From a plasmid: 64,000 nucleotides of DNA. The notes under the pieces are model-generated. The model searched no databases and had not been told where the DNA came from. It was given only the letters and a program-made list of their open reading frames with translations. The position numbers and the translations under genes are program-made. Shown one piece after another: positions 13,094 to 62,914 of this stretch. The stretch's first letter is position 1. The number at the start of each line of letters is the position of its first letter. The stretch lies in sequence record NZ_CP118109.1; one strand, given 5' to 3'.

Positions 13094-13107
13094 TGTAACG
13101 CATTACA
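13094..13107. promoter_or_regulatory. dyad motif TGTAACGCATTACA (copy 1a)
   Basis: 14-bp near-palindrome recurring 13x in intergenic regions. Confidence 0.6.
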
Positions 13108-13128
13108 TTATATGTAGTACTTTTATTT

Positions 13129-13142
13129 TGTAATGCATTGCA
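13129..13142. promoter_or_regulatory. dyad motif TGTAATGCATTGCA (copy 1b), followed by TATAAT at 13152
   Basis: Second copy 35 bp from 1a; -10-like GGGGTATAAT downstream. Confidence 0.55.
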
Positions 13143-13203
13143 AAACATGGGGTATAATGCTATGATATCTTACGACAACCGAACAAAGCGAGGTGGAAAC
13201 AGA

Positions 13204-13926
13204 ATGAAACATCGTAATTTTTATACGATGGGCGTCATTAATGTCCTACTTGCTGCCGCACTTGTTACTAGCGTTCAAAGAGCGGATAGTAGCTTGCAAG
13301 AAAAGAGAAACACGATACATGACTTAAACCAGACTGTAGCTAACCAGAAGCTTCTGATCGACACTCAGCAGGAGGTGCTGAACGATCAGGAAATTTTGAA
13401 AAAGCAGAACAATGAATTGGCCTATCAGCTCAATACCGTTAAGGAAAAAAGAGCAGAAGAAAATGAGCAGTTCAAGGAGCAGCTGGAAGTGCAAAATCGT
13501 TTGTTCACTCAGAAAATTGAGAAGCTTTCGAGCGAAAAAGAACAAGCAAAGCAAAGTGCTAATTCCCAGACCAGGCAACTGAATTGGGATGAAGGCACCG
13601 GTTCGTCTTACATTGCCACGTACTATGATGCAAACGAGGCATCTACAGGTAAGGGACCCGGCCATCCGGCTTATGGAGTGACATTCTCCGGTCGGAAAGT
13701 AGAGGCTGGTGTTACGATTGCAGTAGACCCGAGATTGATCCCAATTGGATCGTGGGTCGAAGTCATGTATCCAGACGGCAGAGTAGAGAAGCGGCGCGCT
13801 GACGATACTGGTGGGGCTATTAAAGGCCACAAAATTGATATCTATGTGCCCGATGCTTCTGACCGTACTAGATACGGAAAGCACGAAGTCAAGGTGAGGA
13901 TTATCTCTACACCAGAGAAATTATAA
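13204..13926 (+). CDS. 3D-domain protein (MltA/RlpA-like double-psi barrel) with signal-anchor TM and coiled coil; YabE/YocH/YuiC-like cell-wall protein
   Basis: C-terminal block GVTIAVDPRLIPIGSWVEVMYPDGRVEKRRADDTGGAIKGHKIDIYV (three conserved Asp); N-terminal TM after GAGGTGG RBS. Confidence 0.6.
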   Translation: MKHRNFYTMGVINVLLAAALVTSVQRADSSLQEKRNTIHDLNQTVANQKLLIDTQQEVLNDQEILKKQNNELAYQLNTVKEKRAEENEQFKEQLEVQNRLFTQKIEKLSSEKEQAKQSANSQTRQLNWDEGTGSSYIATYYDANEASTGKGPGHPAYGVTFSGRKVEAGVTIAVDPRLIPIGSWVEVMYPDGRVEKRRADDTGGAIKGHKIDIYVPDASDRTRYGKHEVKVRIISTPEKL

Positions 13927-13974
13927 TCACTGCAAATTATGAGGAGAGGGCGATCTGCCCGAGGAGGAACTAAC

Positions 13975-14211
13975 ATGCCTATAGATGGACAGGGTGATTT
14001 GTTTGACAATCTTATACCTGCATCAAGAGAAGAGAAACCTTTCGTATCTCTTAGAAGAGAAGATCTGCTTCAATCTTCTTATGTAATCAGCAATGTATTA
14101 CTCAACGTTCTCATTAAACGAGGAATCATTCGCGAAGATGAATTGAATGATCTGCTTGACGAAGCATGGAAAACATACAACGAGCAGGTGAGATTGCATG
14201 GCAACAATTAA
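13975..14211 (+). CDS. hypothetical protein
   Basis: CGAGGAGGA RBS; ORF track trimmed. Confidence 0.4.
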   Translation: MPIDGQGDLFDNLIPASREEKPFVSLRREDLLQSSYVISNVLLNVLIKRGIIREDELNDLLDEAWKTYNEQVRLHGNN

Positions 14212-14539
14212 TAAGATACAGTCTGTGGTTACGCATTTTTCTGAACAATTAAAAGACGGTGAGTACCTCAGTGAAGTTAAGATTGCTGGCAAAATTACTT
14301 CTGTCAGTTTGACGCCTTTATTACCTATTTTCGATAATGAATCTTCGATTCGATCATTTGTTATTGACGACTACATAGGTGAGATCCGAGTGATTATCGC
14401 TGATGATGTATATCAGAATTTCAAAGATATCATCGAAGTTGGCAGCTACCTGTGTATTGACGGAATTTTAAACGTAATCGATAAGCTGCCTAAAAAAGAG
14501 TTTTCAGTTGTTGCCTATGATATGGAGCTACTGGTATGA
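14198..14539 (+). CDS. hypothetical protein (possible OB-fold)
   Basis: ORF track; beta-rich pattern. Confidence 0.4.
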   Translation: MATINKIQSVVTHFSEQLKDGEYLSEVKIAGKITSVSLTPLLPIFDNESSIRSFVIDDYIGEIRVIIADDVYQNFKDIIEVGSYLCIDGILNVIDKLPKKEFSVVAYDMELLV

Positions 14540-14715
14540 GAAATGTGTTTGTTTTGCCAGACGGCACCGAACAGCACTTCATGTATCCTGTTGAACGAGA
14601 TATAGAAATTGGTGATCGCTTCGCTGCACATTTTAGCGATAATTCAGATCACATACTTACTTTAACTTCTATTGTTCATGAGGAAAAACGTATTCTCTAC
14701 AAGCTTTCGTATTAG
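14536..14715 (+). CDS. small hypothetical protein (59 aa)
   Basis: ATG overlapping upstream TGA; hand translation gives uninterrupted 59 codons. Confidence 0.3.
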   Translation: MRNVFVLPDGTEQHFMYPVERDIEIGDRFAAHFSDNSDHILTLTSIVHEEKRILYKLSY

Positions 14716-14779
14716 GTCGCTAACGCTCCATAGGCTTTTTGAAATTATAAATTAAATTACTCTTGAGGAGGACTTTCAC

Positions 14780-15544
14780 ATGTCTAACTATCAAAATAAT
14801 GGTCAAGGTCAACAAGGAAATAACAATCAGGGGAACAGCATGCCTTCCCACGCAGAAATCGAGCTCATCGTTAATTTGGCTACTGTAAAGGATCCAAACA
14901 ATCAAAACGGCGATCGCGTACATGCTTATGCAAGAGCTGTTGGAGATTCTAAAGTTGCTAATGCAAGTGTAGCTGTTAATCACCAAGGTCAATCTGAACC
15001 GGATTATTGGAATCTTGAAGTTTGGGCGAACGGCGACCGTGACGGTAACTTTAAATTTCTGATGGAACACTGCTATAAGGGTCGCCAACTCTTCATCAAA
15101 GGTATTCCAATGCTGAAGAAAAACACAGATGGCCGTATGTTTCCGACCATCAAAGTTAGCAAAATCCAAGGTCTGGGTTCTAGCAATAACAATCAATCTG
15201 GTAATGGATCTAATCAACAACAAGGCGGCTTTGGTCAACAACAGCAACAAGGCGGAGGATTCCAGCAACAGGGTTATCAGCAACAGCCGCAACAAGGGTT
15301 TGGCCAGCAACAAGCTGGAGGCTTCCAACAGCAACAGCCTCAGCAAGGTGGGTTCCAACAGCAACCGCAACAGCCTCAACAAGGCGCTCCTGCTTGGGGT
15401 AATCAACAAGGATTTAACCAGCAACAAAATGGATTTGGTCAGCAACAACCTGCAGGATTTGGCGCCCCACAACAAGGAGGCATGCCTCAAAACCAGCCGC
15501 CACAAGGTAATTTCCAACCACCATTCGGCGCACCGCAACGCTAA
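14780..15544 (+). CDS. ssb: single-stranded DNA-binding protein with long Gly/Gln-rich linker
   Basis: OB-fold N-terminal domain; Q/G-rich tail ending ...FQPPFGAPQR (SSB C-terminal PF tip); GAGGAGG RBS. Confidence 0.75.
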   Translation: MSNYQNNGQGQQGNNNQGNSMPSHAEIELIVNLATVKDPNNQNGDRVHAYARAVGDSKVANASVAVNHQGQSEPDYWNLEVWANGDRDGNFKFLMEHCYKGRQLFIKGIPMLKKNTDGRMFPTIKVSKIQGLGSSNNNQSGNGSNQQQGGFGQQQQQGGGFQQQGYQQQPQQGFGQQQAGGFQQQQPQQGGFQQQPQQPQQGAPAWGNQQGFNQQQNGFGQQQPAGFGAPQQGGMPQNQPPQGNFQPPFGAPQR

Positions 15545-15567
15545 TCCTTTTAAGCAGGTGATGCATT

Positions 15568-17138: not shown

Positions 17139-17708
17139 ATGGCAGCGGCCGAAAAACCAGTTTACTATAATGAATTGCTTAATGATATGCCGCAGGAGTG
17201 TATGCTGCAACAATCTCATGACATGTTGCGTCAAGATATACAAAACTGCAGATTATGTCCGTTTGCTAAACTTACCAAGCCGCTGCCTCTCAACAATTTT
17301 GATGCTTCAATTATGATCGTCGGGGAGACTCCCGACGATGTTTTGTATGATGGCAAGCGAGGCGGAAAACTTGGTAAATTATTGGTTGAAATGGGTATTG
17401 ATCTTAAAGACGTCTATTTAACTTCCCTTACAAAATGCTCAGAGTCCCAAGACTCCGCCAAATGTGCCCATCATCTTACCGGTGAGATTTTAACAGTTCG
17501 CCCCTCTATTATAGTTTGTTTAGGATACAAGACTTCTAGTACAATTATGCAACAACCTCAGTTTGGTCAGTATGTTCAGATAGCGCCATATACACATGCA
17601 TTAGCAACATATTCATTTGCTGATGCAGAAGAGGCGATTGTTTTAGACACGCTTCGGGGGCAGTTTAACTATATTTTAAATGTTTTACAGGGGATGAGGA
17701 CAGCATGA
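17139..17708 (+). CDS. uracil-DNA glycosylase superfamily protein (family 4/5-like, divergent motif)
   Basis: C-x2-CPF...IMIVGETPDD resembles family-4 UDG CxxC + GEAPG motif but degenerate. Confidence 0.4.
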   Translation: MAAAEKPVYYNELLNDMPQECMLQQSHDMLRQDIQNCRLCPFAKLTKPLPLNNFDASIMIVGETPDDVLYDGKRGGKLGKLLVEMGIDLKDVYLTSLTKCSESQDSAKCAHHLTGEILTVRPSIIVCLGYKTSSTIMQQPQFGQYVQIAPYTHALATYSFADAEEAIVLDTLRGQFNYILNVLQGMRTA

Positions 17709-17947
17709 GCAAGGACTACACTATCAACGAAGCAGCCAAGATCCTTGGCGTTCATAAGGATACGATCAAGTACTGGGAGGAAAGAAATCTAATTCCCAGA
17801 GCTAGACGTTCTATTAAAAACAGTCCACGCCATAGTTATCGCATCTACAATGTGGATGAGATCAGGGCTATCGCTAAAATACGAGGCATTTACGATGTTG
17901 AATTGGACGCCGCGATACACAACTTTCATATTTGGGAAAGAAAGTAA
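17705..17947 (+). CDS. MerR/excisionase-type HTH DNA-binding protein
   Basis: N-terminal YTINEAAKILGVHKDTIKYWEERNLIP helix-turn-helix. Confidence 0.55.
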   Translation: MSKDYTINEAAKILGVHKDTIKYWEERNLIPRARRSIKNSPRHSYRIYNVDEIRAIAKIRGIYDVELDAAIHNFHIWERK

Positions 17948-17986: not shown

Positions 17987-18015
17987 TTGACACTATACGA
18001 CAAAGTATTTATAAT
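17987..18015 (+). promoter_or_regulatory. sigmaA-type promoter TTGACA-N17-TATAAT
   Basis: Perfect -35 (17987-17992) and -10 (18010-18015) hexamers with 17-nt spacer. Confidence 0.75.
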
Positions 18016-18086
18016 CAAAAAAGTAATCGATAATCGCAGGAAACAAGAGGATTCTTGCGGGATCGAGCAGGAGCGTGGTTTTAGCA

Positions 18087-18500
18087 ATGGAAATAAGACA
18101 GCTAGAGAAGAATCTTGCTATGGAATCCGCCAGAATCGGAAAGAAAGTCATTGGGCGGGGTCCTACAGAATGCAGAGTTCGCATTATAGATTCCATGATT
18201 GTAATTCGTTGCAGGCTAGAAATGACGCAGTTAGAAAAGCTAATGTACAAGCATCTTGAAATATCAAATGTAACGCATGCCATGATTGAAGACTATAAAA
18301 AAATTCTTCTCCCTATGATTAGCGTCACACTTGCTTCGATTCACTCAGATCTTGAAGTTACAGACTCTTATCTGAAACTTAATACAGAAGGCGGATTCTC
18401 TGTTTTTATTTTGAATATGAATATGGACATTGAAAAATTAATAGCACAAGAAAGAGTGACCGGCTCTAAGTCGGTCACTCGAAAGATAGCAATTAACTGA
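18087..18500 (+). CDS. hypothetical protein (possible DUF2294-like GRGP motif)
   Basis: ORF track trimmed to ATG after AGGAG; downstream of consensus promoter. Confidence 0.4.
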   Translation: MEIRQLEKNLAMESARIGKKVIGRGPTECRVRIIDSMIVIRCRLEMTQLEKLMYKHLEISNVTHAMIEDYKKILLPMISVTLASIHSDLEVTDSYLKLNTEGGFSVFILNMNMDIEKLIAQERVTGSKSVTRKIAIN

Positions 18501-18651: not shown

Positions 18652-18665
18652 TGTAACGCATTATA
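18652..18665. promoter_or_regulatory. dyad motif TGTAACGCATTATA (copy 2a)
   Basis: Recurring motif family. Confidence 0.55.
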
Positions 18666-18767: not shown

Positions 18768-19406
18768 GTGTCTGAAAATTATCTGGAAAGTCGCCTGACG
18801 AAGAATGAAATGTTAGTTTATGAGTATATAAAGCTTAAAACAGAAGAACAGGGATCCGTACAAGAATCTATGATTCAAATGGCTGAAAGCATTAGCGAAA
18901 TGTTTAAGGATCGCATCTCTGTCCGAAAAGTTCATTCCGTGGGCGGCGCAAGTTCCAAAAGCAAAAAAGGTTCTGCCATTAGCACCGCAACGATTTCACG
19001 CGCGGTTAATCGTTTGAAAGCTGAAGGCATAATTGATATTAGACAGTCGCCTGATAGCACGACACCACACGAGTATGTCTTCTTAGGCTTGCCTAATGAA
19101 GAAGAACAAGTGTCTGAAATACTCAATCTGGCTGACAAATTGAACAGTCATTTACAGCGGTTTGAAAAGCTTCTAGTGAATCGTGATAAGGAGATTCATC
19201 AGTTGAAAACGGAGAAGAAGCAGCTGTATGTTCAGCTCGATGCAAAGAATGAGGAGATCCGCGCTTTGAACGAATCATTAGCTTCGCTGCAGAATGAGTT
19301 GAAACAAATCAACACAGATGGAGTGAATCCGTTTAATGACGGTCAATTCGTAGGAATCACGGACATTGGTGATGGCGTTCGAGCCTATCTCGTAAAGACA
19401 CACTAA
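18768..19406 (+). CDS. winged-helix DNA-binding protein with C-terminal coiled coil
   Basis: GTG start after GAGGAGGA; ISTATISRAVNRLKAEGIIDIRQ wHTH; heptad repeats. Confidence 0.4.
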   Translation: MSENYLESRLTKNEMLVYEYIKLKTEEQGSVQESMIQMAESISEMFKDRISVRKVHSVGGASSKSKKGSAISTATISRAVNRLKAEGIIDIRQSPDSTTPHEYVFLGLPNEEEQVSEILNLADKLNSHLQRFEKLLVNRDKEIHQLKTEKKQLYVQLDAKNEEIRALNESLASLQNELKQINTDGVNPFNDGQFVGITDIGDGVRAYLVKTH

Positions 19407-34114: not shown

Positions 34115-34347
34115 TTATGGCTGTGACTTTGGCTCAGCTTCATGTAATGAAGCCAGGAACCGTATTACAAAAAGGTAAAAGAAAACGCATATATCTTGGC
34201 ATGCAAGGAATCATGGTCTTTTACAAAAGGCCATCTTCCAAACAACTGCACGGTGAACATATTGGCCATTTCCGAAAATGGCTTTTAGATGCTGAAATTT
34301 TGCCGACCGAAAATGCATCAAAAACCGATCTTAATATTTCTTTGTAA
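34111..34347 (+). CDS. hypothetical basic protein
   Basis: ORF track. Confidence 0.4.
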   Translation: MIMAVTLAQLHVMKPGTVLQKGKRKRIYLGMQGIMVFYKRPSSKQLHGEHIGHFRKWLLDAEILPTENASKTDLNISL

Positions 34348-34356
34348 CACATTACT
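34343..34356. promoter_or_regulatory. dyad motif TGTAACACATTACT (copy 5) with TATAAT 10 nt downstream
   Basis: Recurring motif family. Confidence 0.5.
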
Positions 34357-39662: not shown

Positions 39663-39676
39663 TGTAAGACGTTACA
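39663..39676. promoter_or_regulatory. dyad motif TGTAAGACGTTACA (copy 6a)
   Basis: Recurring motif family. Confidence 0.5.
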
Positions 39677-47298: not shown

Positions 47299-47311
47299 TG
47301 GAGGCGTAGAA

Positions 47312-48652: not shown

Positions 48653-48687
48653 TCAATTTATCTTAAAATAACGCTTGATTTTAGCTT

Positions 48688-48701
48688 GTAACGTGTTATA
48701 A
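48688..48701. promoter_or_regulatory. dyad motif TGTAACGTGTTATA (copy 7a)
   Basis: Recurring motif family. Confidence 0.5.
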
Positions 48702-48709
48702 TTCAAAAT

Positions 48710-48723
48710 GTAATGCGTTACAA
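48710..48723. promoter_or_regulatory. dyad motif TGTAATGCGTTACA (copy 7b, near-perfect palindrome)
   Basis: Recurring motif family. Confidence 0.6.
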
Positions 48724-50245: not shown

Positions 50246-50803
50246 ATTTAGCATACAAGTAAAGACCGTAGATCAGCCAGAGACCTCTGTATTATTTACT
50301 TGAAAAGGTGCGTTGTGTACGAAACTTTTCAAGTAAACAATATAGGCAAGTAGCGAAAGCTATTATAAGTCCAATTGTTTTCTGGTGCATGGATGCTTAA
50401 ATGGGATCAGGTGCAACAAGTGCCAATGGCAGGGTAGAAGACTCGAATCGGTTGCTTTAAGTTTCCGTTTATCGGATCGGATGGATGCTTGAACAGTAAT
50501 GTTCTTGATCGTGAAAAACACCTTTCATCCTATATGCTTAAAGACCTGCAGCTTGTATGTTAAATGGAGAAAGTTTGTGGGGCGGATTAAGTCTCAATGG
50601 ATTGGACGAGGGCGAAGCTTACTATTAATTTCAGGTAGGATCTTCAGGCATCGAGCAGTTGGGTGTCTGAAGACTATCTTTAAATCCTATATGCCGAAAG
50701 GCCAAGGCTTAATGACCCTAACGAAAACTTTCCGAGACTCACAGGTGATCTGCAGTCGGGTAAGCGGTAAAGACCGGCGTACATAATATAAAGGAGGCTT
50801 CCT

Positions 50804-51374: not shown

Positions 51375-51436
51375 CTTGCCATTTTTGCAAAAAAGTTTTA
51401 TTCTAACTGTTGAGAATTGTCGAGGGGAGAATAGAA

Positions 51437-52270
51437 ATGATTAATAATATTGATGCCAGTGACTTAGACTCTCTCATAAGTCAGCTAAAAAACACTTTTT
51501 CATTTGGTGACTGGGATAAGATTATACTTTTAGCTGAAAAACTTATAGAGAAAACTAATGTTATTAATAATATAACGAAGATGACTGGTGTTAATTTTAA
51601 TCAAGCAGAGAGAAGCCTGGTTTATTATTATGGCTTCGCATATATGGCTATTGGATCAGCTTACGAACATAAGTGTGATTTCTCTAGGGCCAGAGAATGG
51701 GCTCTTAAATATAGGGACTGGTCTTCTGTTTCATCGCCAACTTCTGAGGATATCAGATGGATGAATCATTGGACTAAATTGTCTGAAATTAATGTGATTG
51801 TTGTCGATCTCCTTATGGGAAAAAATGAAGCTCTTGATCAAATTGCTGATTATATATTGGAGCATCCTGAAGATGCCCTAGCCGGATTAATCACAATGCT
51901 CGATGCTGCAAACAAAAATGATATAAATATTGATCATGTCCTTGCTCGTATTCCAGATGATTTCTGGCAGAACGATAAAAGCACAGGTGTTGTCAACATG
52001 TCTTATCAGTATAGATTTTTTCGCCAACTATCCCTTTACAAACAAAAATGTAATGAGTTACATTTTTGTTTAGAAAATCTCTTGCGCGCTTTATCATTAG
52101 CTGATAAAATGAAAAACGTAGATGACTTTAAGGAATGTATTCAAGTTTTTGAATCTCTTAAAGATCACGCCGACAAGCGTCAAGAGAAAAAATATAACCG
52201 GATAGTAAAGGGAGCGATTAGGCATGAAAAAGTTGTTTCTATCAGCATTGCTAACATTAGGGATTCTTAG
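51437..52270 (+). CDS. TPR-like all-helical protein, candidate RRNPP-type (Rap/AimR/PlcR-like) peptide receptor lacking obvious HTH
   Basis: SLVYYYGFAYMAIGSAYEHKCDFSRAREWALKY TPR signature; GAGGGGA RBS; 3' end overlapped by secreted-peptide ORF. Confidence 0.45.
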   Translation: MINNIDASDLDSLISQLKNTFSFGDWDKIILLAEKLIEKTNVINNITKMTGVNFNQAERSLVYYYGFAYMAIGSAYEHKCDFSRAREWALKYRDWSSVSSPTSEDIRWMNHWTKLSEINVIVVDLLMGKNEALDQIADYILEHPEDALAGLITMLDAANKNDINIDHVLARIPDDFWQNDKSTGVVNMSYQYRFFRQLSLYKQKCNELHFCLENLLRALSLADKMKNVDDFKECIQVFESLKDHADKRQEKKYNRIVKGAIRHEKVVSISIANIRDS

Positions 52271-52376
52271 CGTAACAGCAGGCGCTGTGAGCGCATCGGA
52301 CGTAACTAAGCCTGTGGTTGTATCTAACCAAGAGGATGCAGTTATTACTACTATGACCTTTGGTTGGGGTTCTTAA
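52224..52376 (+). CDS. secreted pro-peptide (50 aa) with Sec signal peptide; candidate signalling peptide (C-terminal ...MTFGWGS)
   Basis: AAGGGAG RBS; MKK + hydrophobic core + AVSA-SD cleavage site; overlaps receptor 3' end in alternate frame as in rap-phr/aimR-aimP. Confidence 0.4.
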   Translation: MKKLFLSALLTLGILSVTAGAVSASDVTKPVVVSNQEDAVITTMTFGWGS

Positions 52377-52442: not shown

Positions 52443-52456
52443 TGGAATGCATTACA
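52443..52456. promoter_or_regulatory. dyad motif TGGAATGCATTACA (copy 8) immediately upstream of RBS of 52475 gene
   Basis: Recurring motif family. Confidence 0.55.
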
Positions 52457-54596: not shown

Positions 54597-54691
54597 AATT
54601 AAAAATGCATCAAAATACTGACAGGTATTATCATGGTGAGGGCCGCCTTTGTGCGGCTTTTCCCATGTATATCATCATATGGGGGATTCCT

Positions 54692-55738
54692 ATGTCAAAT
54701 AAGGTATATAATGACTCATTGTATAACGAGGATGTGAAATTAAAGTTCCTAGAGTTAATGAAAAAGAATGGTTGTTCTGAAAATACATTAGTTACATATA
54801 AGCGAGTTTTTCTACGCGCATCTGGATTAGAAAAAAGATTTAAGACGGATCTGTATGATTTTACATTCGAATATATAGAAAAACTCTTAATCAAGATGAA
54901 TCATACAACATTAAACTCCGCAATAAGCAGCATTAGCATCATAAGAAGTTACATTGATTGGGCGATACAGAACAAGTACAGAAAGGTGCCTTTAAGCCCA
55001 CTGGACGTATTCACTACGAAGGAATTGGCCCAGCGATACAAGAACAAACGAGTAAGAGTATATTTTACACATGCTGAAGTGCAAAAGTTTGCAGATAGCG
55101 CTGTGAATGCGCAGGATAAGGCTCTCATTTGGGCAATGTTTCATGGTATATGTGGAAATGGGATGGCAGAACTAAGGAATCTTACGTTGTATGATATTGA
55201 TCAGCATAACTATAAATTGACTCTTAAGGACGATGATTCAGAGAGAGTTATTGAACTCATCTCAGATGAACAAAAAAAATTGATCGACCACCTTCTTAAA
55301 GCCCATGAGCAAACTCATTATCTAAAGGGAAACGGAAAGTCTGTTGCTAAAAACCCTATCGGTTTCTTAGCAAAAAATAACCATGTATTTAGGCCTATGA
55401 TTCGTGGAGACAGTTCTACTGCTTCTTATCATGTTTTAAGAAATAGACTTGTAGATATATCAAAAATCAACGAAGAGCCGCAACTAACTTCCCCTATTTC
55501 GTTAAGATATAGTGGGATGCTTTATATGGCTTATTGTGAATATCAAAAGCATGGGGCGTTGAGTCTTGAGTCCATAAAGAGAATTTCAGATTTCTATGCT
55601 ATCAGTAAAGTAACTGATTCCAAATATGACAACTTCTTTATTCGAAGAGAATTTTTAACCGAAGAAACGATCATAAAGGAATATCTCTCTGGAGACGAAG
55701 GAGAAGAAGACTATGGAGTTGATGCAAAGATATTTTGA
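54692..55738 (+). CDS. tyrosine-recombinase/integrase-like protein (SAM-like core-binding domain; divergent catalytic region)
   Basis: N-terminal core-binding-like helices (FLELMKKNGCSENTLVTYKRVF...); HVLRNR and terminal Y candidates; start after TGGGGGAT. Confidence 0.35.
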   Translation: MSNKVYNDSLYNEDVKLKFLELMKKNGCSENTLVTYKRVFLRASGLEKRFKTDLYDFTFEYIEKLLIKMNHTTLNSAISSISIIRSYIDWAIQNKYRKVPLSPLDVFTTKELAQRYKNKRVRVYFTHAEVQKFADSAVNAQDKALIWAMFHGICGNGMAELRNLTLYDIDQHNYKLTLKDDDSERVIELISDEQKKLIDHLLKAHEQTHYLKGNGKSVAKNPIGFLAKNNHVFRPMIRGDSSTASYHVLRNRLVDISKINEEPQLTSPISLRYSGMLYMAYCEYQKHGALSLESIKRISDFYAISKVTDSKYDNFFIRREFLTEETIIKEYLSGDEGEEDYGVDAKIF

Positions 55739-57048: not shown

Positions 57049-58092
57049 TTAACGAAGCAATTGAAGAACTGCTTGTGGTTGTTGGTTTGCTTGAGCCAAC
57101 ATTGCTTGAGCTGCTTGGGAAAGAATCGAGTTCTTAGTTTGCTCAACCATTTCTTTCGCCATGTCAACGTCACGAATACGGGATTCAGATGCTGTCAGGT
57201 TCTCTGCTGTTGTACCCAGGTTATTTACTGTGTGCTCCAAACGGTTTTGTACGGAACCCAATTTAGAACGCTCAGCAGATACGCTCTCGATCGCTGCGTT
57301 AATTGTAGTGATTGCTGTATCAGCGTCTTCTTGGTTAGAAATGTTGATACCAGCGTTTACTTTTGCTTCATCAGCATATGCTTCGTCAACTTTGACAACC
57401 ATTTTGTCGCCATCGTAGTAACCAGCTACAACAACATCATCTTCGGTTGCCTTTCTAGTTGTACCATTACCACTGCCATCGTCAATGTCGTCTCCGACAT
57501 TAACTGCTTCTTTAAAAGTAAGTGTAGTTGTTCCGGCAGTCAAAGTTGCAGTAGTGCCATCGTTATCAGATGTGTACTCTGTGCTTACTTTCAGCGCTTC
57601 AGCGCCCATGTCACTAATTGAAAGACTAATGCTTTGACCTGCATTTGCTCCGATTTGGAATGTAACATTTTCAGCAGAACCATTGATCAGCTTTTTCGTA
57701 TTGAACTCAGTGTCTGTAGAGATACGAGTCAATTCTTCAGCTAATTGGTTTACTTCTTTTTGAAGCTCTGCGCGGTCGGAATCCGTGTTTGTGTCAGATG
57801 CTGATTGAACTGCCAGCTCACGCATACGTTGCAGGATAGAATGAGATTCATTCAATGCACCTTCAGCTGTCTGGATCAGTGAGATACCATCTTGAGCGTT
57901 ACGAGAAGCTTGCTCAAGACCGCGGATTTGTCCACGCATTTTTTCGGAGATTGCAAGACCCGCTGCGTCATCACCAGCACGGTTGATGCGAAGACCGGAA
58001 GACAATTTCTCCATGTTTTTTCCTTGTGCAGAGTTAGCTGCGCCCAGGCTGCGTTGAGTGTTAATCGCCGCAATGTTGTGATTGATAATCAT
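57049..58092 (-). CDS. hag: flagellin (Hag/FliC family)
   Basis: N-terminal [16 protein letters not shown]...[30 protein letters not shown] and C-terminal [14 protein letters not shown]...[25 protein letters not shown], near-identical to B. subtilis Hag D0/D1; GGAGGT RBS. Confidence 0.95.
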
Positions 58093-58150
58093 TTTTAACC
58101 TACCTCCATGTAGTTACGTCAAGGAGAGTCCTTTCTCCTTGCGTTAAGAT

Positions 58151-58348
58151 TTAGAGCGGCAGTCCATTTTGTCTGCAGAGCTCTTTTTGTTCGTCTGACA
58201 AGATCTCTTCCCTGAGTATCTTAACGTCATTCGGAGCAGTTATTTCTAACTTTGGATTGCCGTAATCATCGACCTTCACTTTAATATGTATGGAATTGCC
58301 GATAATGATCGACTCACCCGCTCTTCTGTTGACTGTTAATTTTCCCAT
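58151..58348 (-). CDS. csrA: carbon storage regulator CsrA (flagellin translation regulator)
   Basis: MGKLTVNRRAGESIIIGNSIHIKV...ITAPNDVKILREEI matches CsrA (LVLTRKVGESIVIGDDIEITV...APKEV-V-REEI); directly upstream of hag as in B. subtilis. Confidence 0.8.
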   Translation of the reverse strand: MGKLTVNRRAGESIIIGNSIHIKVKVDDYGNPKLEITAPNDVKILREEILSDEQKELCRQNGLPL

Positions 58349-58382
58349 GCCGACTACCAACTTCCCTATTGTGATAGTTATT

Positions 58383-58409
58383 TTATCGGCGGGATCCGGA
58401 AATAGTTTA
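58383..58409 (-). promoter_or_regulatory. sigmaD (sigma-28, flagellar) promoter TAAA-N15-GCCGATAA driving csrA-hag
   Basis: Minus-strand TAAA (58409-58406), 15-nt spacer, GCCGATAA (58390-58383) vs consensus TAAA-N15-GCCGATAT. Confidence 0.65.
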
Positions 58410-58445
58410 TACCATTTTAAAAAAATTTTATTGGAGCTGATAAAT

Positions 58446-58790
58446 ATGAAATATAACCCTACTCTACTCAACGTTTTTAATCTTAATAAATTTGATCCTC
58501 GTGAGTTAACGTATAGCGAAAAAATGCTGGTCGAGGAATATCTTGGCGAAATCTTAGAGGAACAATATTCCGGAGACATCCAAGAAATTATCCATTATCA
58601 AGATAAACGCATTACATTTAGCGAGGATTCTGAAGGCTTCAAACTGCCCCTAGCAAACGATCTACCACTTGAATATAACCTATGGAATATAAATAGTTTA
58701 TTCGCCTATGGAGAGGCTGATATGGAGCTTGTGGCGGTCTTAGAGAATCCCGAAAATACAATGAATCAGGTGATGGTTAGTATGTATTAA
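58446..58790 (+). CDS. hypothetical acidic protein (divergent from csrA)
   Basis: ATG 58446 after GGAGCTGA; ORF track frame. Confidence 0.4.
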   Translation: MKYNPTLLNVFNLNKFDPRELTYSEKMLVEEYLGEILEEQYSGDIQEIIHYQDKRITFSEDSEGFKLPLANDLPLEYNLWNINSLFAYGEADMELVAVLENPENTMNQVMVSMY

Positions 58791-58841: not shown

Positions 58842-59102
58842 ATGAAAATAATATCTATCTATCTGGCGATAGGTTCCATTATCGCTTTTCTATTTTTAAT
58901 GTCTCTATACGGCTTTAGTTGGTACACCCAAAGAAATGAGCCTGATGATTTTGAAGAGGAGCTGGAAAGAGAGCAGCTGCAAGGATCGTGGGATAAAGCA
59001 TCAAGAGAATTTGGCGGAGACATGCGTACTGTATTCTTGATGTTCGTTACGATCTGTCTGGCTTGGCCAGGTTTTATTATTTATGCTTTCAAGAAAGACT
59101 GA
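58842..59102 (+). CDS. membrane protein (2 TM)
   Basis: ORF track; GAGGTG RBS. Confidence 0.45.
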   Translation: MKIISIYLAIGSIIAFLFLMSLYGFSWYTQRNEPDDFEEELEREQLQGSWDKASREFGGDMRTVFLMFVTICLAWPGFIIYAFKKD

Positions 59103-59130
59103 ACATCGTATTGCAGGAGTGTAAAGAAAA

Positions 59131-59367
59131 TTGAAACAGATTGAAGAATGCTTTGACCGGTATTTTGATAATATGTCACCGCTCAAAAAGAAATGGCAAA
59201 TCGTCGATGCGCCAGGAAATAGTCTATGGCTTTTTCATTACCACCATCTTATTCTTGTCTTTAATAAGACCACTAGAGAGATTATTCATGAGTGGGCGGA
59301 AACATCTGCTGATAAGCGCGGTTTGAGAGCTGCAAAAGAATATCTTACAAGACGTTATGATCTGTAG
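59131..59367 (+). CDS. hypothetical protein (TTG start)
   Basis: ORF track. Confidence 0.4.
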   Translation: MKQIEECFDRYFDNMSPLKKKWQIVDAPGNSLWLFHYHHLILVFNKTTREIIHEWAETSADKRGLRAAKEYLTRRYDL

Positions 59368-59481
59368 TATAGTATAGCAACGAGGAACGCTTGTATGCTT
59401 AGGCGCTGTCTCCGATTTTGATGTTTCATTATTGGAATCATGGGGTAATATATTCTTTTACATTCATCACGAGGTGAGGAC

Positions 59482-60009
59482 ATGATTGGCCTGCTTAGAC
59501 AGCGACCTGCGTTAATTGTTGGATTTATTGTAAATAGCGATACCCACATTGAAGCTGTACGTAATTTATTTCCTGTCGAGTACCATAAAAGGATGATCTT
59601 TCTTTCGCTAAGCGCGCTTGATCTAACCGATAATATGAAGCGTTATGTAACCATGCTAGGCAATCTTACTCATCATTTAATTATTTGCCTAGATCCTGGC
59701 CAAATCGCTGATGCTCTTACTCCTGTATTTAAGGAGTGGGTGCCTTCTGCCGAAGAAGTTGTTCTCAACGTTCCTTTGCTCGAATGCGAAAAAGAATATT
59801 TGGGTCTTCAAATTTTTGAAGCATACCGTTTTTCTGTTTGTGAGAAGAAACGTGCTAAAGAATTAATACCCTGCATAAATTGTACCAAGATGACCTATAT
59901 TATCGACTCTAGCTGGAATGTGCCTTTATGTAGTGATGCATGCTTTGAAGAATGGGAATCGAATCATGCGAAGAAGCTGCGCTCAAAACGCCATAAGCAA
60001 AAATTATAA
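59482..60009 (+). CDS. hypothetical protein with C-terminal FCS/TRASH-type zinc ribbon
   Basis: GAGGTGAGG RBS; CINC-x15-CSDACFEEW. Confidence 0.45.
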   Translation: MIGLLRQRPALIVGFIVNSDTHIEAVRNLFPVEYHKRMIFLSLSALDLTDNMKRYVTMLGNLTHHLIICLDPGQIADALTPVFKEWVPSAEEVVLNVPLLECEKEYLGLQIFEAYRFSVCEKKRAKELIPCINCTKMTYIIDSSWNVPLCSDACFEEWESNHAKKLRSKRHKQKL

Positions 60010-60260
60010 TATCTAAGCGGATGATTGGATGTTTTCAGTTGTCCGCTTCTTTGTTTTTCGATTTTTATCTACCTTCTTCCCTCTCATTTTTACCGCCTCC
60101 GTTTGATAGTTTCTACTCTTTTTATACCCTATTTGCTAGGACGAACACAAGTCTTTTGTCGATTCACTTATCCACAGCTCTGCCTATTATTTATATATGG
60201 TGGAGAAAAGATTTTATTAAAGAAAGTACTTCTTTGCGTTAAATTTTTTAACCCCCCTCT

Positions 60261-60463
60261 TTAAAATTTTTAACGTAATAGCCTTTCGTTAAAATTTTTA
60301 ACGTAATGTTTTTGCCTAAAATCGTTACGTTAAAAATTTTAACATAAGGGTTATCCACAGATCGATCTACTACGTTAAAATTTTTAACGTAATGAGCTTC
60401 AACTCTCAAATTCGTTACGTTAAAAATTTTAACGTAAGAGATAACCACAAAATCTGTGGATAA
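60261..60463. repeat. origin-like array: five palindromic iterons (TTACGTTAAAA(A)TTTT(T)AACGTAA) plus two perfect DnaA boxes in inverted orientation
   Basis: Iterons at 60261, 60287, 60323, 60371, 60412; TTATCCACA 60351-60359; TGTGGATAA 60455-60463; AT-rich. Confidence 0.65.
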
Positions 60464-60477
60464 CTTTTCAATAAAAA

Positions 60478-60508
60478 AAGCAGAAGGATGTCTCCCTCTG
60501 CTCTCTTT
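60478..60508. terminator. bidirectional intrinsic terminator between rep gene and iteron array
   Basis: AGCAGAAGG-loop-CCCTCTGCT with T-tracts on both sides. Confidence 0.55.
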
Positions 60509-61483
60509 TTACAAAAATTTTTCTGCTGTAGTAACACAAATAATTGCATCATTATTGTTGGTCAAATCTCTAAAGATGTTAAGAATTTGCTTCGAATGAT
60601 AATTATCAATCCATTCTGCAGCGAATGGCGCAGGCGCAAGCACCACCAGTTTGTTATCTTCGAAGAACCCAAAAGTCTCTTTAAACCATGTGCCAAATGT
60701 AACGGCGCTTATAGATCGTTTCAAGATATCTTCGATCTCACTCCATAAGTGAATGTCTTGAGGTGTTCGATTCAGGAACAGCTCTTCACGTTTTTTGTTG
60801 ATCCTTACTTCCAACGGAGCGGTGACTTCAATTGATCCAGGTGTTCTAGCTCTCCCCTTCTCATGCAGCTTCTTAATCTCGTCTTCATGATCATTATTCT
60901 CTGGGAGCATAACCTCGTTAGACTCAAAAAGTTTTTCCATAAAGCGATTATGTTGAAGGAGTAGCCACTCAGGCAGCTGCTTCAGCTCTGCCTCACTTAA
61001 GAAAGGAACGGTCTGTCTTACTTTCACTCGAGTGCTATCATTCATTCCCTTTTTCTTTTTACTCTCTGCCCAGAACCGCATAACAAAACCGTAGTCTTCA
61101 AGTTTACTTAGGTATTTAATCAGTGTAACACGACTGATCCCCATCATTTCTGCCATGTGTTCTTGTGACATATGAGGGATTGATTCGTTGAATGAAAGGC
61201 TCAGATAATTTATGTAGGTCATGGTAGCTTCTGGCCCAAGAAAGTATTGCCAAAATTTAATCAGATAATTGTGAACGGTGGTTTTGTTGCCTGGTGTGTA
61301 AGGCAGTGAAAGACCCAAGTTCTCGAGCGAATAACTAGTGACATCTTTTTCAGTGTAATAGATCTTCCTCGTCTCCTCGACCATTTCCTCAATGCTCTCC
61401 CCGTTAACTTTTCTTTTTCGCGGCACCTTATTTCCCGTCTTTTCATAGCGGAAATAATGTATGTCATTCGTGCTGTCGCCCAT
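60509..61483 (-). CDS. replication initiator: N-terminal RepA_N-like wHTH plus C-terminal DnaA domain-I-like domain
   Basis: HTH MSQEHMAEMMGISRVTLIKYLSKLEDYGFV; C-terminal LWSEIEDILKRSISAVTFGTWFKETFGFFEDNKLVVLAPAPFAAEWIDNYHSKQILNIF aligns with B. subtilis DnaA N-terminus ([25 protein letters not shown]...LTITAPNEFARDWLESRYLHLI); start set at ATG 61483 behind GAGGAGG. Confidence 0.6.
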   Translation of the reverse strand: MGDSTNDIHYFRYEKTGNKVPRKRKVNGESIEEMVEETRKIYYTEKDVTSYSLENLGLSLPYTPGNKTTVHNYLIKFWQYFLGPEATMTYINYLSLSFNESIPHMSQEHMAEMMGISRVTLIKYLSKLEDYGFVMRFWAESKKKKGMNDSTRVKVRQTVPFLSEAELKQLPEWLLLQHNRFMEKLFESNEVMLPENNDHEDEIKKLHEKGRARTPGSIEVTAPLEVRINKKREELFLNRTPQDIHLWSEIEDILKRSISAVTFGTWFKETFGFFEDNKLVVLAPAPFAAEWIDNYHSKQILNIFRDLTNNNDAIICVTTAEKFL

Positions 61484-61505
61484 CTTCAAAGACCTCCTCA
61501 AGTAA

Positions 61506-61668: not shown

Positions 61669-61743
61669 TGATATTAACATACATTCTTAGACTTTGGAAA
61701 CTCCCCCAGTACTTTTATCACCAAGGTATGATTTGACAACGAC

Positions 61744-61768
61744 TTGACACTAAAAGTTTGGTATAATA
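61744..61768 (+). promoter_or_regulatory. promoter with extended -10 TGGTATAAT (TTGACA 12 nt upstream)
   Basis: TTGACActaaaagtttgGTATAAT upstream of 61804 gene. Confidence 0.5.
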
Positions 61769-61803
61769 TACTAAACCCAACAAATGGATGTTGGGTGGTC
61801 ATT

Positions 61804-62352
61804 ATGAAATATGTCAAAGGCTTAGACGAAAAATACTACGGAGAGATGATCGTAGAGATCGACCAAAAGTTCCAGGCGCTCCATGCAAAATTGAATCTGT
61901 ATTGCCCTGGGCTGCATTTAATGCCCACGCCGGTTACTGTAGAGGGTGTTCAATATCCTTATCCTCTTGCAGCACAAATACGAGAGATCTATCTCTATAT
62001 GATCGGTCAAAGAGAAATGCCGCAAGACATAGTAAGCATGCTAGAAAGTATCTGCTCTCTAATTTGGGAGAACAACTTTCTGAATGAAACATTCTTTACT
62101 ATCGACTGGCTAAAGTGGGAAAAAACCTTGATCGGAAGGTTTGTAAGATGCACCTACATAAGAATTACACTAGATGCTGGCGAACCGATCACAGCAAAAC
62201 AATTGGCGCTTATGACTGGCCTTACACCGGCTGGTATAGTAAAAGCCATAAATACCAAGAGGCTTCATGGGCGGAAGATCAAGAGCGAATGGTCTATTCC
62301 AGCGGAAGATGCCACCACTTTTATTTGGAAGCACGTCAATACATCAAGATAG
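61804..62352 (+). CDS. hypothetical protein with C-terminal HTH-like segment
   Basis: ITAKQLALMTGLTPAGIVKAINTKRLHG; ORF track trimmed. Confidence 0.4.
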   Translation: MKYVKGLDEKYYGEMIVEIDQKFQALHAKLNLYCPGLHLMPTPVTVEGVQYPYPLAAQIREIYLYMIGQREMPQDIVSMLESICSLIWENNFLNETFFTIDWLKWEKTLIGRFVRCTYIRITLDAGEPITAKQLALMTGLTPAGIVKAINTKRLHGRKIKSEWSIPAEDATTFIWKHVNTSR

Positions 62353-62365
62353 GGGATTGAGCTGC

Positions 62366-62518
62366 ATGTACATTGTAACCTGGGTTGAAAATGATCAAGT
62401 CCAAGATAGAGGATTCAAAACTCCTTCAGAGCGAGATACTTTTATTAGCAATCTTAAAGAAGAAGGCATTGAATCTGATTGGTACTCTGACGAAGAAGCC
62501 AAGGAGGAAAATCGTTAA
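62366..62518 (+). CDS. small hypothetical acidic protein (50 aa)
   Basis: GGGGATTGAG then ATG 62366; ORF track frame 62267..62518. Confidence 0.3.
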   Translation: MYIVTWVENDQVQDRGFKTPSERDTFISNLKEEGIESDWYSDEEAKEENR

Positions 62519-62790
62519 TGAATGATATGGTAGTTCAAATGGAGATTGCTGACTTAACCGATCACACAGATTTGCAAAAGCAAATCATCATTGAACGACT
62601 ACAGACTGACACGAATTTGCGAGACGATCAGTACAATGTAATAGGAAGAATAATTCTGCCTTATCTTGATGGTGACAAGTTAAAGGCTACCGTAAAAGTG
62701 CACTCATCTTCTATTATCACTAGGTCAATAGCAGAGGCTTGCAAAAATATATCATCTGAAATACGAAATATGAAATTTAATCTGCACTAA
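62518..62790 (+). CDS. hypothetical protein
   Basis: ORF track; ATGA overlap; followed by terminator. Confidence 0.45.
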   Translation: MNDMVVQMEIADLTDHTDLQKQIIIERLQTDTNLRDDQYNVIGRIILPYLDGDKLKATVKVHSSSIITRSIAEACKNISSEIRNMKFNLH

Positions 62791-62795
62791 AAAAA

Positions 62796-62820
62796 CCTGC
62801 CAACACGGCAGGCTTTTTTA
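62796..62820 (+). terminator. intrinsic terminator
   Basis: CCTGCC-AACAC-GGCAGG + TTTTTTA. Confidence 0.75.
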
Positions 62821-62900
62821 TAGGGAAAATAAGTCAAAGAGAGAAAAATCAAGGAGCAGGAAAAAAGGTCATTTGTTCCTATAGCTAGTATATAATGAAA

Positions 62901-62914
62901 TGTAATGCATTACA
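62901..62914. promoter_or_regulatory. dyad motif TGTAATGCATTACA (copy 9, perfect palindrome) flanked by TATAAT boxes
   Basis: Recurring motif family. Confidence 0.6.

Follow-up and report, generated by a model that had tools for sequence, protein, structure and literature searches.

Over a large part of a phage-plasmid, one short palindrome, TGTAAYGCRTTACA, recurs ahead of genes of many kinds, which raises the question of what this sequence does and which protein, if any, reads it. The window, that is, the whole stretch of DNA analysed here (64 kb), is part of a ~215-kb phage-plasmid of Paenibacillus sp. TCA20. A pattern search of the window returned four exact copies of the palindrome (13094, 22091, 48709 and 62901), where none was expected, and 21 copies with at most two mismatches against 0.84 expected, the expectations being taken from 100 shuffles, of which the highest gave 4. 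The excess is thus confirmed. Twelve of these 21 matches fall between genes, non-coding DNA making up ~6-10% of the window, and 8 of the 36 gaps longer than 40 bp hold a site. The information content is confined to a compact symmetric core of 14 bp with AT-rich flanks, which points to recognition by a symmetric dimer.

The first-pass annotation had listed 13 sites. Eleven of its coordinates are right, and the two given as 48688 and 48710 are off by one (48687 and 48709). Four of the 13 carry no mismatch, four carry one, four carry two and one carries four. The sites, with the operon behind the first pair, are as follows:

13094..13107, TGTAACGCATTACA: exact; adjoins a -10-like TATATT; upstream half of a tandem pair; kept in the relative L127
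13129..13142, TGTAATGCATTGCA: one mismatch; its right arm is the -35 (TTGCAA) of a TG-extended promoter at 13138-13166; kept in L127
13204-17947: operon behind the 13094/13129 pair (3D-domain peptidase, SSB, RecA, UDG, MerR-like protein)
18652..18665, TGTAACGCATTATA: one mismatch; 116 nt upstream of a winged-helix (wHTH) gene; not conserved in L127
18677..18690, TGTAACGTGTTATA: two mismatches; 91 nt upstream of the same gene; its right arm merges into a -10-like TATACT; kept in L127
22091..22104, TGTAACGCATTACA: exact; 10 nt past an extended -10 (TGtTATAGT), with a radical-SAM (NrdG-like) gene starting 17 nt downstream; the block is wholly kept in L127
28860..28873, AGTAATGCATTACA: one mismatch; directly 3' of TGcTAAAAT, ahead of a small gene at 28890 and a UvrD-like helicase gene
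34343..34356, TGTAACACATTACT: two mismatches; upstream of gene 34389; overlaps the -35 (TTGTAA) of a TTGTAA-18-TATAAT promoter
39663..39676, TGTAAGACGTTACA: two mismatches; upstream of gene 39739; position kept upstream of the orthologue of this gene (w_39739) in L014, L016 and L042
39687..39700, TGTAACGTCTTTTA: four mismatches; on direct reading only the left half-site is retained, and the copy is doubtful
48687..48700, TGTAACGTGTTATA: two mismatches; runs into the spacer and -10 of a TG-extended TTGATT-16-TATAAT promoter that lies downstream of the beta-clamp gene
48709..48722, TGTAATGCGTTACA: matches the consensus exactly; 6 nt past the -10 of that TTGATT-16-TATAAT promoter and 28 nt upstream of the ATG at 48751
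52443..52456, TGGAATGCATTACA: one mismatch; 18 nt upstream of a 75-aa gene at 52475, which opens a block whose last gene encodes an MrpR homologue
62901..62914, TGTAATGCATTACA: perfect palindrome; 4 nt past TATAAT; the putative 52-aa ORF downstream has no clear RBS

Perfect symmetry had been claimed for both 62901 and 48709. It holds for 62901, the sole perfect palindrome, and fails for 48709. Every copy had also been described as intergenic, which is true of the listed sites but not of all matches, since the following unlisted ones include copies in coding regions:

779..792, TGTAAGGCAATACA: two mismatches; immediately upstream of a SLOG-family gene (808-1353)
1320..1333, TGTAATACATTACA: one mismatch; within the 3' end of the preceding ORF, 16 nt upstream of the ATG at 1350
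4117..4130, TGTAAGGCATTACA: one mismatch; near the 3' end of ORF 3752-4213, with gene 4268 beginning ~140 nt downstream
5276, 18200, 18269, 23290, 33748 and 52049: further matches in coding regions

The palindrome is not a peculiarity of this plasmid. Phage-plasmids of ~200 kb in Bacillus and Paenibacillus form a previously undescribed family, whose members (140-260 kb) occur in Paenibacillus, in the B. licheniformis, subtilis and cereus groups and in Alicyclobacillus. They have the motif in common despite protein identities of only 30-60% and a spread in GC content from 28 to 53%. In the P. rhizovicinus member (NZ_CP048288.1), we counted 42 sites with up to two mismatches, where chance would give about 2; 25 of them have no more than one mismatch. 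The sites lie on both strands, ahead of early, replication, structural (late) and lysis operons. Position is conserved across the divergent family as well as sequence, even where protein identity is 30-50%. The site ahead of the NrdG-like gene is kept in place in L127, L068, L114 and P. rhizovicinus (137337), and a site after the clamp gene, as at 48709, recurs in L011, L046 and P. rhizovicinus (160389). The palindrome is also present in SPbeta and in an unrelated contig of 60% GC (L091), neither of which encodes the wHTH protein or the MerR-like protein.

Placement is intergenic and close to promoters. The motif typically starts -1 to +11 nt past a sigma-A-type -10 hexamer and 10-30 nt upstream of a start codon. 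Among 74 family sites, 54 are followed within 130 nt by an RBS and an ORF, 26 of them at 10-29 nt, and strong -10 hexamers end -1 to +11 nt before the motif at 32 of 40. When both sides of 47 sites were compared, a -10 in this interval was found on the gene side at 27 and on the far side at 12. A few sites (13129, 34343 and 48687) overlap the -35 or the spacer instead. The TATAAT or TACAAT reported 10-30 bp after the motif is not the rule, the -10 lying more often before it, but the motif does occupy the -35 or spacer in the upstream member of some tandem pairs. A position that varies in this way is what one would look for in an operator rather than in a promoter element.

This bears directly on a second proposal of the first-pass annotation, a phage-specific promoter class, in which the motif would be part of a promoter for a phage-encoded or phage-modified RNA polymerase and no repressor site. 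The motif stands at nearly all operon heads, the late ones too, as such a promoter might. On direct reading, a 1227-aa protein of the P. rhizovicinus relative contains the sequence GADNDGD, which recalls the catalytic loop found in two-barrel (YonO-like) RNA polymerases; a Pfam search with this protein gave no match. A promoter class of its own, 21 bp long, has been proposed for phage 0305phi8-36, a phage with shared structural genes (PMC2147016), but the 50-kb stretch of that phage at 100-150 kb contains no good copy of the motif. The single known YonO start in SPbeta lies away from the palindrome (PMC5467207). Ordinary sigma-A -10 or extended -10 hexamers accompany the sites, the motif varies in place between the -35 region and about +20, and a perfect palindrome, which is unexpected in a promoter, has no direction. 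We consider a phage promoter very unlikely.

The near invariance of the motif over hosts from the B. cereus group to Paenibacillus and Alicyclobacillus, at GC contents of 28-53%, would also suit a conserved Bacillales transcription factor of the host that is exploited by these elements, and SPbeta has the palindrome with neither candidate protein. To our knowledge, however, the motif fits no operator of a global Bacillus regulator: cre needs a central CG where the motif has GC, TnrA/GlnR and Rex sites differ in spacing, and Zur/Fur boxes have a 7-1-7 arrangement. The palindrome was not found in the literature searched. Each element carries dozens of copies while none has been demonstrated on chromosomes, which favours a factor encoded by the element. 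A host factor has a small chance of being the reader.

Among element-encoded proteins, the MrpR/YopR homologue at 54605-55738 (Pfam MrpR_N_CB and MrpR_C_cat) was weighed as well. SPbeta shows a similar arrangement, with one site repeated at many promoters over a large Bacillus prophage. The motif would then be the equivalent of the SPBRE, operator of a master repressor of the MrpR/YopR (SroF) type. SPbeta MrpR binds its repeated element at ~10 promoters, just 5' of ribosome-binding sites (PMC10516654). Like the motif, the SPBRE often lies between the -10 and the RBS, including ahead of the repressor operon itself; in the window the 52443 copy heads the block that ends in the MrpR gene, and SPbeta has two copies of the palindrome immediately upstream of yopM. 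Nevertheless, MrpR is absent from most motif-rich relatives: P. rhizovicinus has 42 sites and no homologue, and in family plasmids B. halotolerans alone has one. The SPBRE (ACAAATACAAAWAATATGTATA) is a different element, ~22 bp long, AT-rich, asymmetric and bound by a monomeric integrase-fold protein, whereas the motif is a perfect dyad of 14 bp, 3-4 times more numerous and present in relatives without MrpR. The box recognised by SroF of phi3T is 26 bp long, and the protein binds it as a monomer (bioRxiv 10.1101/2025.11.27.690993). In Perkons, which has the nearest MrpR relative of any sequenced phage, no motif lies within 17 kb. Most motif-rich relatives lack MrpR, and repressors of the SPbeta type act as monomers on long asymmetric boxes. 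We exclude the window homologue as the binder on these grounds; the chance that the motif is its operator is minimal.

The 52443 copy had also suggested a communication-controlled regulon, as it lies directly 3' of an ORF for a 50-aa secreted-peptide-like product and of a helical-repeat protein; the motif would then mark genes under an arbitrium-like peptide-signalling cassette (51410-52376). This link is not supported. The site is one of dozens of equivalent sites, and relatives that lack the cassette have as many or even more, P. rhizovicinus having agrBD elsewhere instead. For the 286-aa "AimR-like" protein (51410-52270), we found no HTH and no Pfam family, only weak PPR/TPR-like helical-repeat similarity. 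Known AimR operators differ too, SPbeta having an ATCACT...AGTGAT repeat beside the palindrome, with another sequence. Of all the readings weighed here, we give this one the least credence.

Our data support the view, already held in the first-pass annotation, that the motif is a dyad-symmetric promoter element best read as the element-wide operator of a dimeric HTH protein. TGTAAYGCRTTACA is probably the operator of a global repressor which the element itself encodes. Binding by a protein, repression as its effect and the identity of the binder are what we infer. The earlier list of regulators contained the two best candidates:

18768..19406, + strand: TCA2_4445, 212 aa; winged helix, 73-residue coiled coil and small beta domain
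17705..17947, + strand: 80 aa; MerR-type winged-helix domain only; last gene of the RecA-UDG operon

The protein at 18768-19406 is the best candidate, and we put its chances of being the binder at nearly even. It was found in 9 of 9 family plasmids, where its gene belongs to the core set; of its 42 homologues, almost all come from contigs of 130-230 kb. Within 200 nt upstream of the gene, 10 of 11 loci have a site with no more than three mismatches, against ~6% of random 200-nt windows; the sites ahead of the P. rhizovicinus gene are 3-mismatch matches only. Outside the family, a homologue on a 12.7-kb contig (L141) is accompanied by one exact TGTAATGCATTACA, where ~1e-4 was expected, and by no MerR neighbour gene. 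The AF2 model (pLDDT 81.6) predicts a winged helix, a 73-residue helix and a small beta domain; its top Foldseek matches in the PDB are dimeric PadR-type, RTP and MarR proteins, though these matches are weak (E >= 0.016) and generic for winged helices, and Pfam detected no PadR or MarR domain. Against this candidate, the recognition helix reads STATISRAV in the window and SEATVHRAI in the family, yet the motif is nearly unchanged, its sole difference being a modest shift to C at position 6.

The small MerR-type protein at 17705-17947 would bind the palindrome as a dimer, like minimal MerR-family regulators. Of the family's small DNA-binding proteins it is the best conserved (54-59% identity), it occurs in exactly the family plasmids, and its HTH segment, LGVH+DT+xYWE, is nearly invariant, as is the motif. 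Pfam assigns the MerR-type domain, sequence matches in the PDB are to MerR, CarA-N and CueR, and the tandem sites 13094/13129 head its operon. The MerR-family regulators TnrA and GlnR recognise TGTNA-N7-TNACA, with the same half-sites as the motif but another spacing. Against this, only ~15-30 residues follow the DNA-binding domain, so that the typical MerR dimerisation coiled coil is absent or very short; the last place in a recombination and repair operon is odd for a maintenance repressor; MerR-type operators normally lie in the promoter spacer, not at +1; and L141 combines an exact motif and a wHTH homologue with no MerR gene. All family members have both proteins together with the motif, and shared occurrence therefore does not tell the two apart as binders; the divergent member L138 keeps both but has few good sites. 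We regard the MerR-like protein as a possible but rather unlikely binder.

Under a repressor encoded by the element, a symmetric dimer, most likely the PadR/MarR-like winged-helix and coiled-coil protein at 18768-19406, would bind the 14-bp dyad. In sigma-A-type promoters the dyad would mostly cover the start point of transcription (about -5 to +20) and less often the -35 or spacer. The bound dimer would stand in the way of RNA polymerase where most operons begin and so keep the whole element silent in the carrier state, and some promoters, the repressor's own among them, may be more tightly controlled through tandem sites. With all operons, the late ones too, under one repressor, temporal control would have to come from another factor.

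Several known systems resemble this proposal in part. PadR operators contain inverted ATGT/ACAT repeats at a spacing of 8-10 nt (PMC3506622). The motif here is TGT-N8-ACA, but the flanking A/T of the PadR sites is not conserved. PadR, LmrR and B. cereus PadR1/2 are dimeric winged-helix proteins that pair through a C-terminal helix, and PadR-type proteins are the top fold matches of the candidate's model; the candidate differs in its 73-residue C-terminal helix followed by an extra beta domain, and a PadR protein usually governs one or two operons whereas the motif is found at dozens.

In phage P1, the single repressor C1 acts at many dispersed operators and silences a plasmid prophage. The proposal made here shares this logic of scattered operators; the sequences and proteins are unrelated, the C1 operators being asymmetric 17-mers bound by a monomer. 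KorA and KorB of IncP plasmids act on short palindromic operators, present in 7-12 copies at backbone promoters and conserved across divergent plasmids, but they involve different proteins (KorB is ParB-like), different hosts, fewer sites and no phage. Cluster A mycobacteriophages carry dozens of repressor sites per genome, the stoperators, which are asymmetric, orientation-dependent, located in transcribed regions and stop elongation. The sites described here are as numerous, dozens in both cases, but they are symmetric and lie at promoters.

The motif reported by the first-pass annotation in this DNA, a recurring 14-bp palindrome, is confirmed by our counts. A pattern search with the consensus TGTAAYGCRTTACA found 4 exact copies in the 64-kb window where 0 were expected, and allowing up to two mismatches raised this to 21 matches, against 0.84 expected and a maximum of 4 in shuffled sequence. 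Intergenic gaps account for only about 6–10% of the window but hold twelve of the 21, and the excess extends to the whole family of related elements. In an alignment of the sites, only the 14 symmetric positions carry information, the flanks being AT-rich without further conservation. Eleven of the 13 coordinates first assigned are correct and two were off by one base (true positions 48687 and 48709). The sequence at 39687 is not a full copy, as its left half-site alone is kept (four mismatches), and several copies had been missed, among them those at 779 and 1320, just before start codons. The motif is also not exclusively intergenic as first described, since further overlooked matches, at 4117, 5276, 18200, 18269, 23290, 33748 and 52049 fall in coding sequence. 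The densest cluster of motif-like sequences in the window (18200, 18269, 18652 and 18677) lies ahead of the gene for a winged-helix protein. The copies, far above chance and concentrated in non-coding DNA at operon heads, fit the dispersed operator regulon of a global repressor of a prophage or plasmid.

The proteins encoded in the window include RecA, a UvrD-type helicase, a DnaG-type primase, a beta clamp, ThyX, RNase H, a uracil-DNA glycosylase and two SNF2-type helicases, and the window further carries a flagellin gene, a tRNA and a protein matching both Pfam MrpR domains. The 18768–19406 product is identical to TCA2_4445 of Paenibacillus sp. TCA20, on a contig of 214,846 bp. In the INPHARED phage collection, window positions 40000–48000 had no DNA match, and no sequenced phage comes close at the DNA level. 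At the protein level, the 1081-aa helicase (41507–44752) retrieved from INPHARED only four human faecal contigs (26–33% identical), the winged-helix protein retrieved nothing and the MerR-like protein of 17705–17947 marginal matches only. The large SNF2 helicase has full-length matches, 43–50% identical, on 200–260 kb plasmids of P. rhizovicinus, B. licheniformis, B. paralicheniformis, B. halotolerans and B. thuringiensis. The P. rhizovicinus record (NZ_CP048288.1; 228,841 bp) encodes a major capsid protein, terminase, tail proteins, holin, ParM, DnaE and NrdEF. Over about 45 genes its gene order matches that of the window, which is therefore part of a phage-plasmid. Its family appears undescribed, as no description was found in the literature searched. 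The same genes and the same motif-bearing promoter are found at both ends of the linear P. rhizovicinus record (around 6800–10750 and 218570–222520; L129 and L133), which reflects either long terminal redundancy or the assembly of a circularly permuted genome. Further features of the window are the following.

9770–10447 (+): Prok-E2_D-like protein, forming a ubiquitin-like conjugation pair with the next gene
10892–11707 (+): ThiF-family adenylyltransferase, whose gene is also present in the B. paralicheniformis relative
49200–50800: region with no convincing ORF, containing tRNA-Leu(GAG) at 49827–49898 and a second tRNA-like match, by Rfam only, at 50166–50240
57049–58579 (−): complete flagellin gene (Flagellin_N and Flagellin_C), then on the same strand a 142-aa protein with a CsrA domain in its C-terminal part; this looks like a flagellin/CsrA regulatory pair on a phage-plasmid

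Scanning IMG/VR with TGTAATGCATTACA returned many loci, clustered on a few contigs of 80–230 kb that encode orthologues of window proteins (30–50% identity). The position of the motif is kept as well: the orthologue of gene 39739 is preceded by a site in three contigs, a site follows the beta-clamp gene in P. rhizovicinus and in two contigs, and the NrdG-like gene has one ahead of it among relatives. In the closer contig L127 (about 70% nucleotide identity), sites 13094, 13129, 18677 and 22091 are kept within conserved promoter blocks, while 18652 is lost. The P. rhizovicinus element (50% GC) has 9 exact copies; the count rises to 25 when one mismatch is allowed and to 42 with two, against an expectation of about 2. 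These sites occur on both strands, ahead of early and replication genes, the operons for the tail chaperone and the head, the amidase and the holin region. Sites are also present in pG9842_140 (a 140-kb B. cereus plasmid, 30% GC), in a B. thuringiensis plasmid (28% GC) and in an Alicyclobacillus contig (53% GC). L138, a divergent member of the family, retains both the winged-helix and the MerR-like proteins but has few good sites; TGAAA arms occur in some of its sites. Three palindrome copies (at 624, 2475 and 5335) were found on a 6.4-kb viral contig of 60% GC (L091, IMGVR_UViG_3300048902_000100) that has no protein in common with the window's family, and these may represent independent use of the same operator sequence.

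We then analyzed how the motif is placed relative to genes and promoters, using a pool of 74 family sites with at most one mismatch. In 54 of the 74, a ribosome-binding site and an ORF follow within 130 nt on one side, with the start codon 10–29 nt away in 26 of these 54. A strong -10 hexamer lies up to 45 nt upstream of 40 of the 74 sites, ending -1 to +11 nt before the motif in 32 of the 40; at the 47 oriented sites, it is on the gene side in 27 and on the far side in 12. By sequence, the sites coincide with core promoter elements or with the putative transcription start. At 13129 the right arm of the motif is the -35 hexamer, at 34343 the motif overlaps the -35, and a TG-extended promoter has its spacer and -10 overlapped by 48687 and its sequence from +6 onwards covered by 48709. 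A generic sigma-70 scan gave total promoter counts not above those of shuffles, so that we use only individual coincidences with the motif. These promoters look like ordinary sigma-A promoters overlaid by a symmetric site. Since this site covers the region occupied by RNA polymerase, the arrangement points to a repressor and its operator, and a perfect palindrome that shifts between the -35 region and +20 disfavours a directional promoter element or an RNA signal.

A phage-specific promoter element is nevertheless kept alive as an alternative by a 1227-aa protein of P. rhizovicinus (99362–103045; L130/L131), whose GADNDGD motif is reminiscent, from its sequence, of the catalytic loop of two-barrel (YonO-like) RNA polymerases. 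Against it, Pfam finds nothing in this protein, the sole known YonO start in SPbeta is upstream of yonK and away from the palindromes of that phage, and the published 21-bp promoter class of phage 0305phi8-36 is not the motif in the 50 kb of that genome covered.

If the motif is a repressor operator, its binder could be one of several DNA-binding proteins encoded in the window.

17705–17947: 80-aa MerR-type protein (Pfam)
18768–19406: winged-helix protein (sequence reading and weak PHROG matches)
31267: winged-helix protein (sequence reading and weak PHROG matches)
54605–55738 (+): MrpR homologue (Pfam MrpR_N_CB and MrpR_C_cat), 28% identical to SPbeta MrpR/YopR
60509–61501 (−): protein with a winged helix and a DnaA N-terminal domain (Pfam)

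Pfam searches of about 90 further window ORFs, as concatenated pseudo-proteins, and of 9 single queries added no other HTH; this set covered obviously spurious crude ORFs and the stretch 59000–60750 only in part, and the GS linkers of the pseudo-proteins gave spurious "Serglycin" matches. The genes for the MerR-like and 18768 proteins are neighbours, and because both are present in all nine family plasmids detected, their co-occurrence cannot tell them apart.

The 18768 protein has no Pfam family at E ≤ 0.001. Its AlphaFold2 model (mean pLDDT 81.6) consists of a winged helix, a single 73-residue helix that would lend itself to coiled-coil dimerization, and a small beta domain. The best Foldseek matches of this model in the PDB were dimeric PadR-type proteins (1xma, LmrR, 6abt), the replication terminator protein and MarR, all of them weak (E of at least 0.016; TM about 0.5 on the target for the PadR type). 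PadR operators are ATGT/ACAT inverted repeats 8–10 nt apart (PMC3506622); the motif has TGT-N8-ACA, without conservation of the outer A/T. The 200 nt upstream of the winged-helix gene contain a site with no more than three mismatches in 10 of 11 loci, where about 6% would be expected, an autoregulation-like arrangement as far as the sequences indicate. A homologue also occurs outside the phage-plasmid family and without the MerR neighbour, on a 12.7-kb P. naphthalenovorans contig (L141) that carries one exact TGTAATGCATTACA in a divergent intergenic region, against about 1e-4 expected. Distant relatives from Oscillospiraceae share the SEATVHRAI helix, but they belong to a different, HTH_36-type family with no motif nearby and were set aside. 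Upstream of this gene, a perfect sigma-A consensus promoter (TTGACA-17-TATAAT; 17987–18015, +) without the motif points into a DUF2294/MpsC gene (18075–18500) and onward to the winged-helix gene; it could be a source of unrepressed expression of the candidate repressor. We give the predicted winged-helix protein of 18768–19406 close to an even chance of being the binder.

Some minimal MerR-family proteins, such as TnrA and GlnR, read TGTNA half-sites, and the MerR-like protein of 17705–17947 is more highly and more uniformly conserved, above all in its recognition helix. However, it leaves little space for a dimerization helix and its gene is the last of a recombination operon, and we regard it as an unlikely binder. 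The TnrA/GlnR box itself (TGTNA-N7-TNACA, 17 bp) was rejected, as its half-sites fit but the motif spacing is N4 and not N7. The CcpA/LacI-type cre operator, a 14-bp dyad (TGWAANCGNTNWCA) with a central CG step, has the same outer arms (TGTAA...TTACA) but was rejected too, since every strong site has G|C at its centre instead of C|G. In a comparison of motif position 6 with the residues of the recognition helix, the frequency of C shifts modestly, from 47% in the window and L127 to 26% in P. rhizovicinus; as both candidates vary in parallel, this does not separate them, and the Bacillus loci in this comparison are biased, having been ascertained with the TGCA variant.

A conserved host factor exploited by these elements would account for the invariance of the motif across hosts and for the palindrome copies in SPbeta. 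To our knowledge, though, no operator of a Bacillus global regulator matches the motif, and no paper in the literature searched contains any of the four exact motif strings queried. Taken together, a host factor and a factor encoded outside the window are improbable, to about the same degree as the MerR-like protein.

The motif had also been proposed to mark a communication-controlled regulon, as one copy (52443) lies just downstream of a putative signalling cassette.

51410–52376 (+): 286-aa helical-repeat protein with no HTH and weak PPR/TPR-like matches, its end overlapped by a 50-aa ORF with a signal-peptide-like N-terminus and ending in ...TMTFGWGS; possibly a receptor-peptide signalling pair

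At another place, the P. rhizovicinus relative has agrB/agrD instead of this cassette. A regulon of such an arbitrium-like system fails as an explanation: there is no HTH in the receptor-like ORF, and sites are more numerous in relatives that lack the cassette. For the same lack of an HTH, and because the motif occurs dozens of times, an AimR operator (a single site downstream of aimP, driving aimX) was rejected.

In SPbeta, MrpR binds a repeated element, SPBRE, at about ten promoters (PMC10516654), and its phi3T orthologue, SroF, binds as a monomer to an asymmetric box of 26 bp (bioRxiv 10.1101/2025.11.27.690993). Given the MrpR homologue in the window, we considered the motif as a possible SPBRE counterpart. 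Reading the SPbeta genome in full located SPBRE, ACAAATACAAAWAATATGTATA, exactly at the ten published target genes; its sequence is unrelated to the 14-bp dyad, and identity with SPBRE or with the long asymmetric AT-rich SroF box was rejected. MrpR itself was also rejected as the binder: the P. rhizovicinus element has no MrpR homologue yet 42 motif copies, and among the other family plasmids only that of B. halotolerans has one. With most motif-rich relatives lacking it, MrpR is here accessory cargo. In SPbeta and phage Perkons it follows YopP- and YopQ-like partners, which the window homologue lacks. The only window proteins in common with SPbeta are MrpR and a 3D-domain peptidase; in searches of the window with YopM, YopN, YopO, YopP, YopQ, YopR, YopS, YopT, YonR, YopB, YosT and YotL, YopR alone matched.

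SPbeta (NC_001884) does contain exactly two copies of the palindrome, at 77773–77786 (one mismatch) and 77857–77870 (exact). Spaced 84 bp apart, they flank the aimX terminator immediately ahead of SPBRE and yopM/sroA, and their only annotation is "palindrome"; no binder for them was found proposed in the literature examined. They are kept in close SPbeta relatives and absent from the phi3T region. No homologue of the winged-helix protein or of the MerR-like candidate was found in SPbeta, and relatives of the winged-helix protein are present on B. subtilis contigs of about 150 kb. The palindromes lie shortly before the sroA-F repressor operon, the output node of the SPbeta arbitrium switch. That the operator is a shared regulatory "word" by which a resident jumbo phage-plasmid controls other mobile elements is a long shot; if true, the repressor of a co-resident phage-plasmid could set the lysis-lysogeny decision of SPbeta.

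Our results confirm the motif as a conserved, compact palindrome at most operon heads of large Bacillales phage-plasmids, where it is a putative operator. Judging by geometry, conservation and co-occurrence, a dimeric winged-helix protein encoded by the element, most likely that of 18768–19406, would repress globally through it. The element family, the site and the candidate protein all appear undescribed. For the operator of a temperate phage, it is unusual that the site hardly varies between genera and GC contents, which suggests that immunity specificity is set elsewhere in these elements. The SPbeta-type repressor and the signalling cassette beside one site are accessory cargo, not controllers of the motif. 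The motif offers a regulatory code, concrete and open to testing, for phage-plasmids of 140–260 kb, a large family that is essentially unstudied and is common in Bacillus and Paenibacillus, food and biocontrol strains among them. A 14-bp site at most operon starts can serve to map transcription units, to recognize family members in metagenome data and to isolate the master regulator. It is similar in type to the dispersed operators of P1, SPbeta and IncP plasmids.
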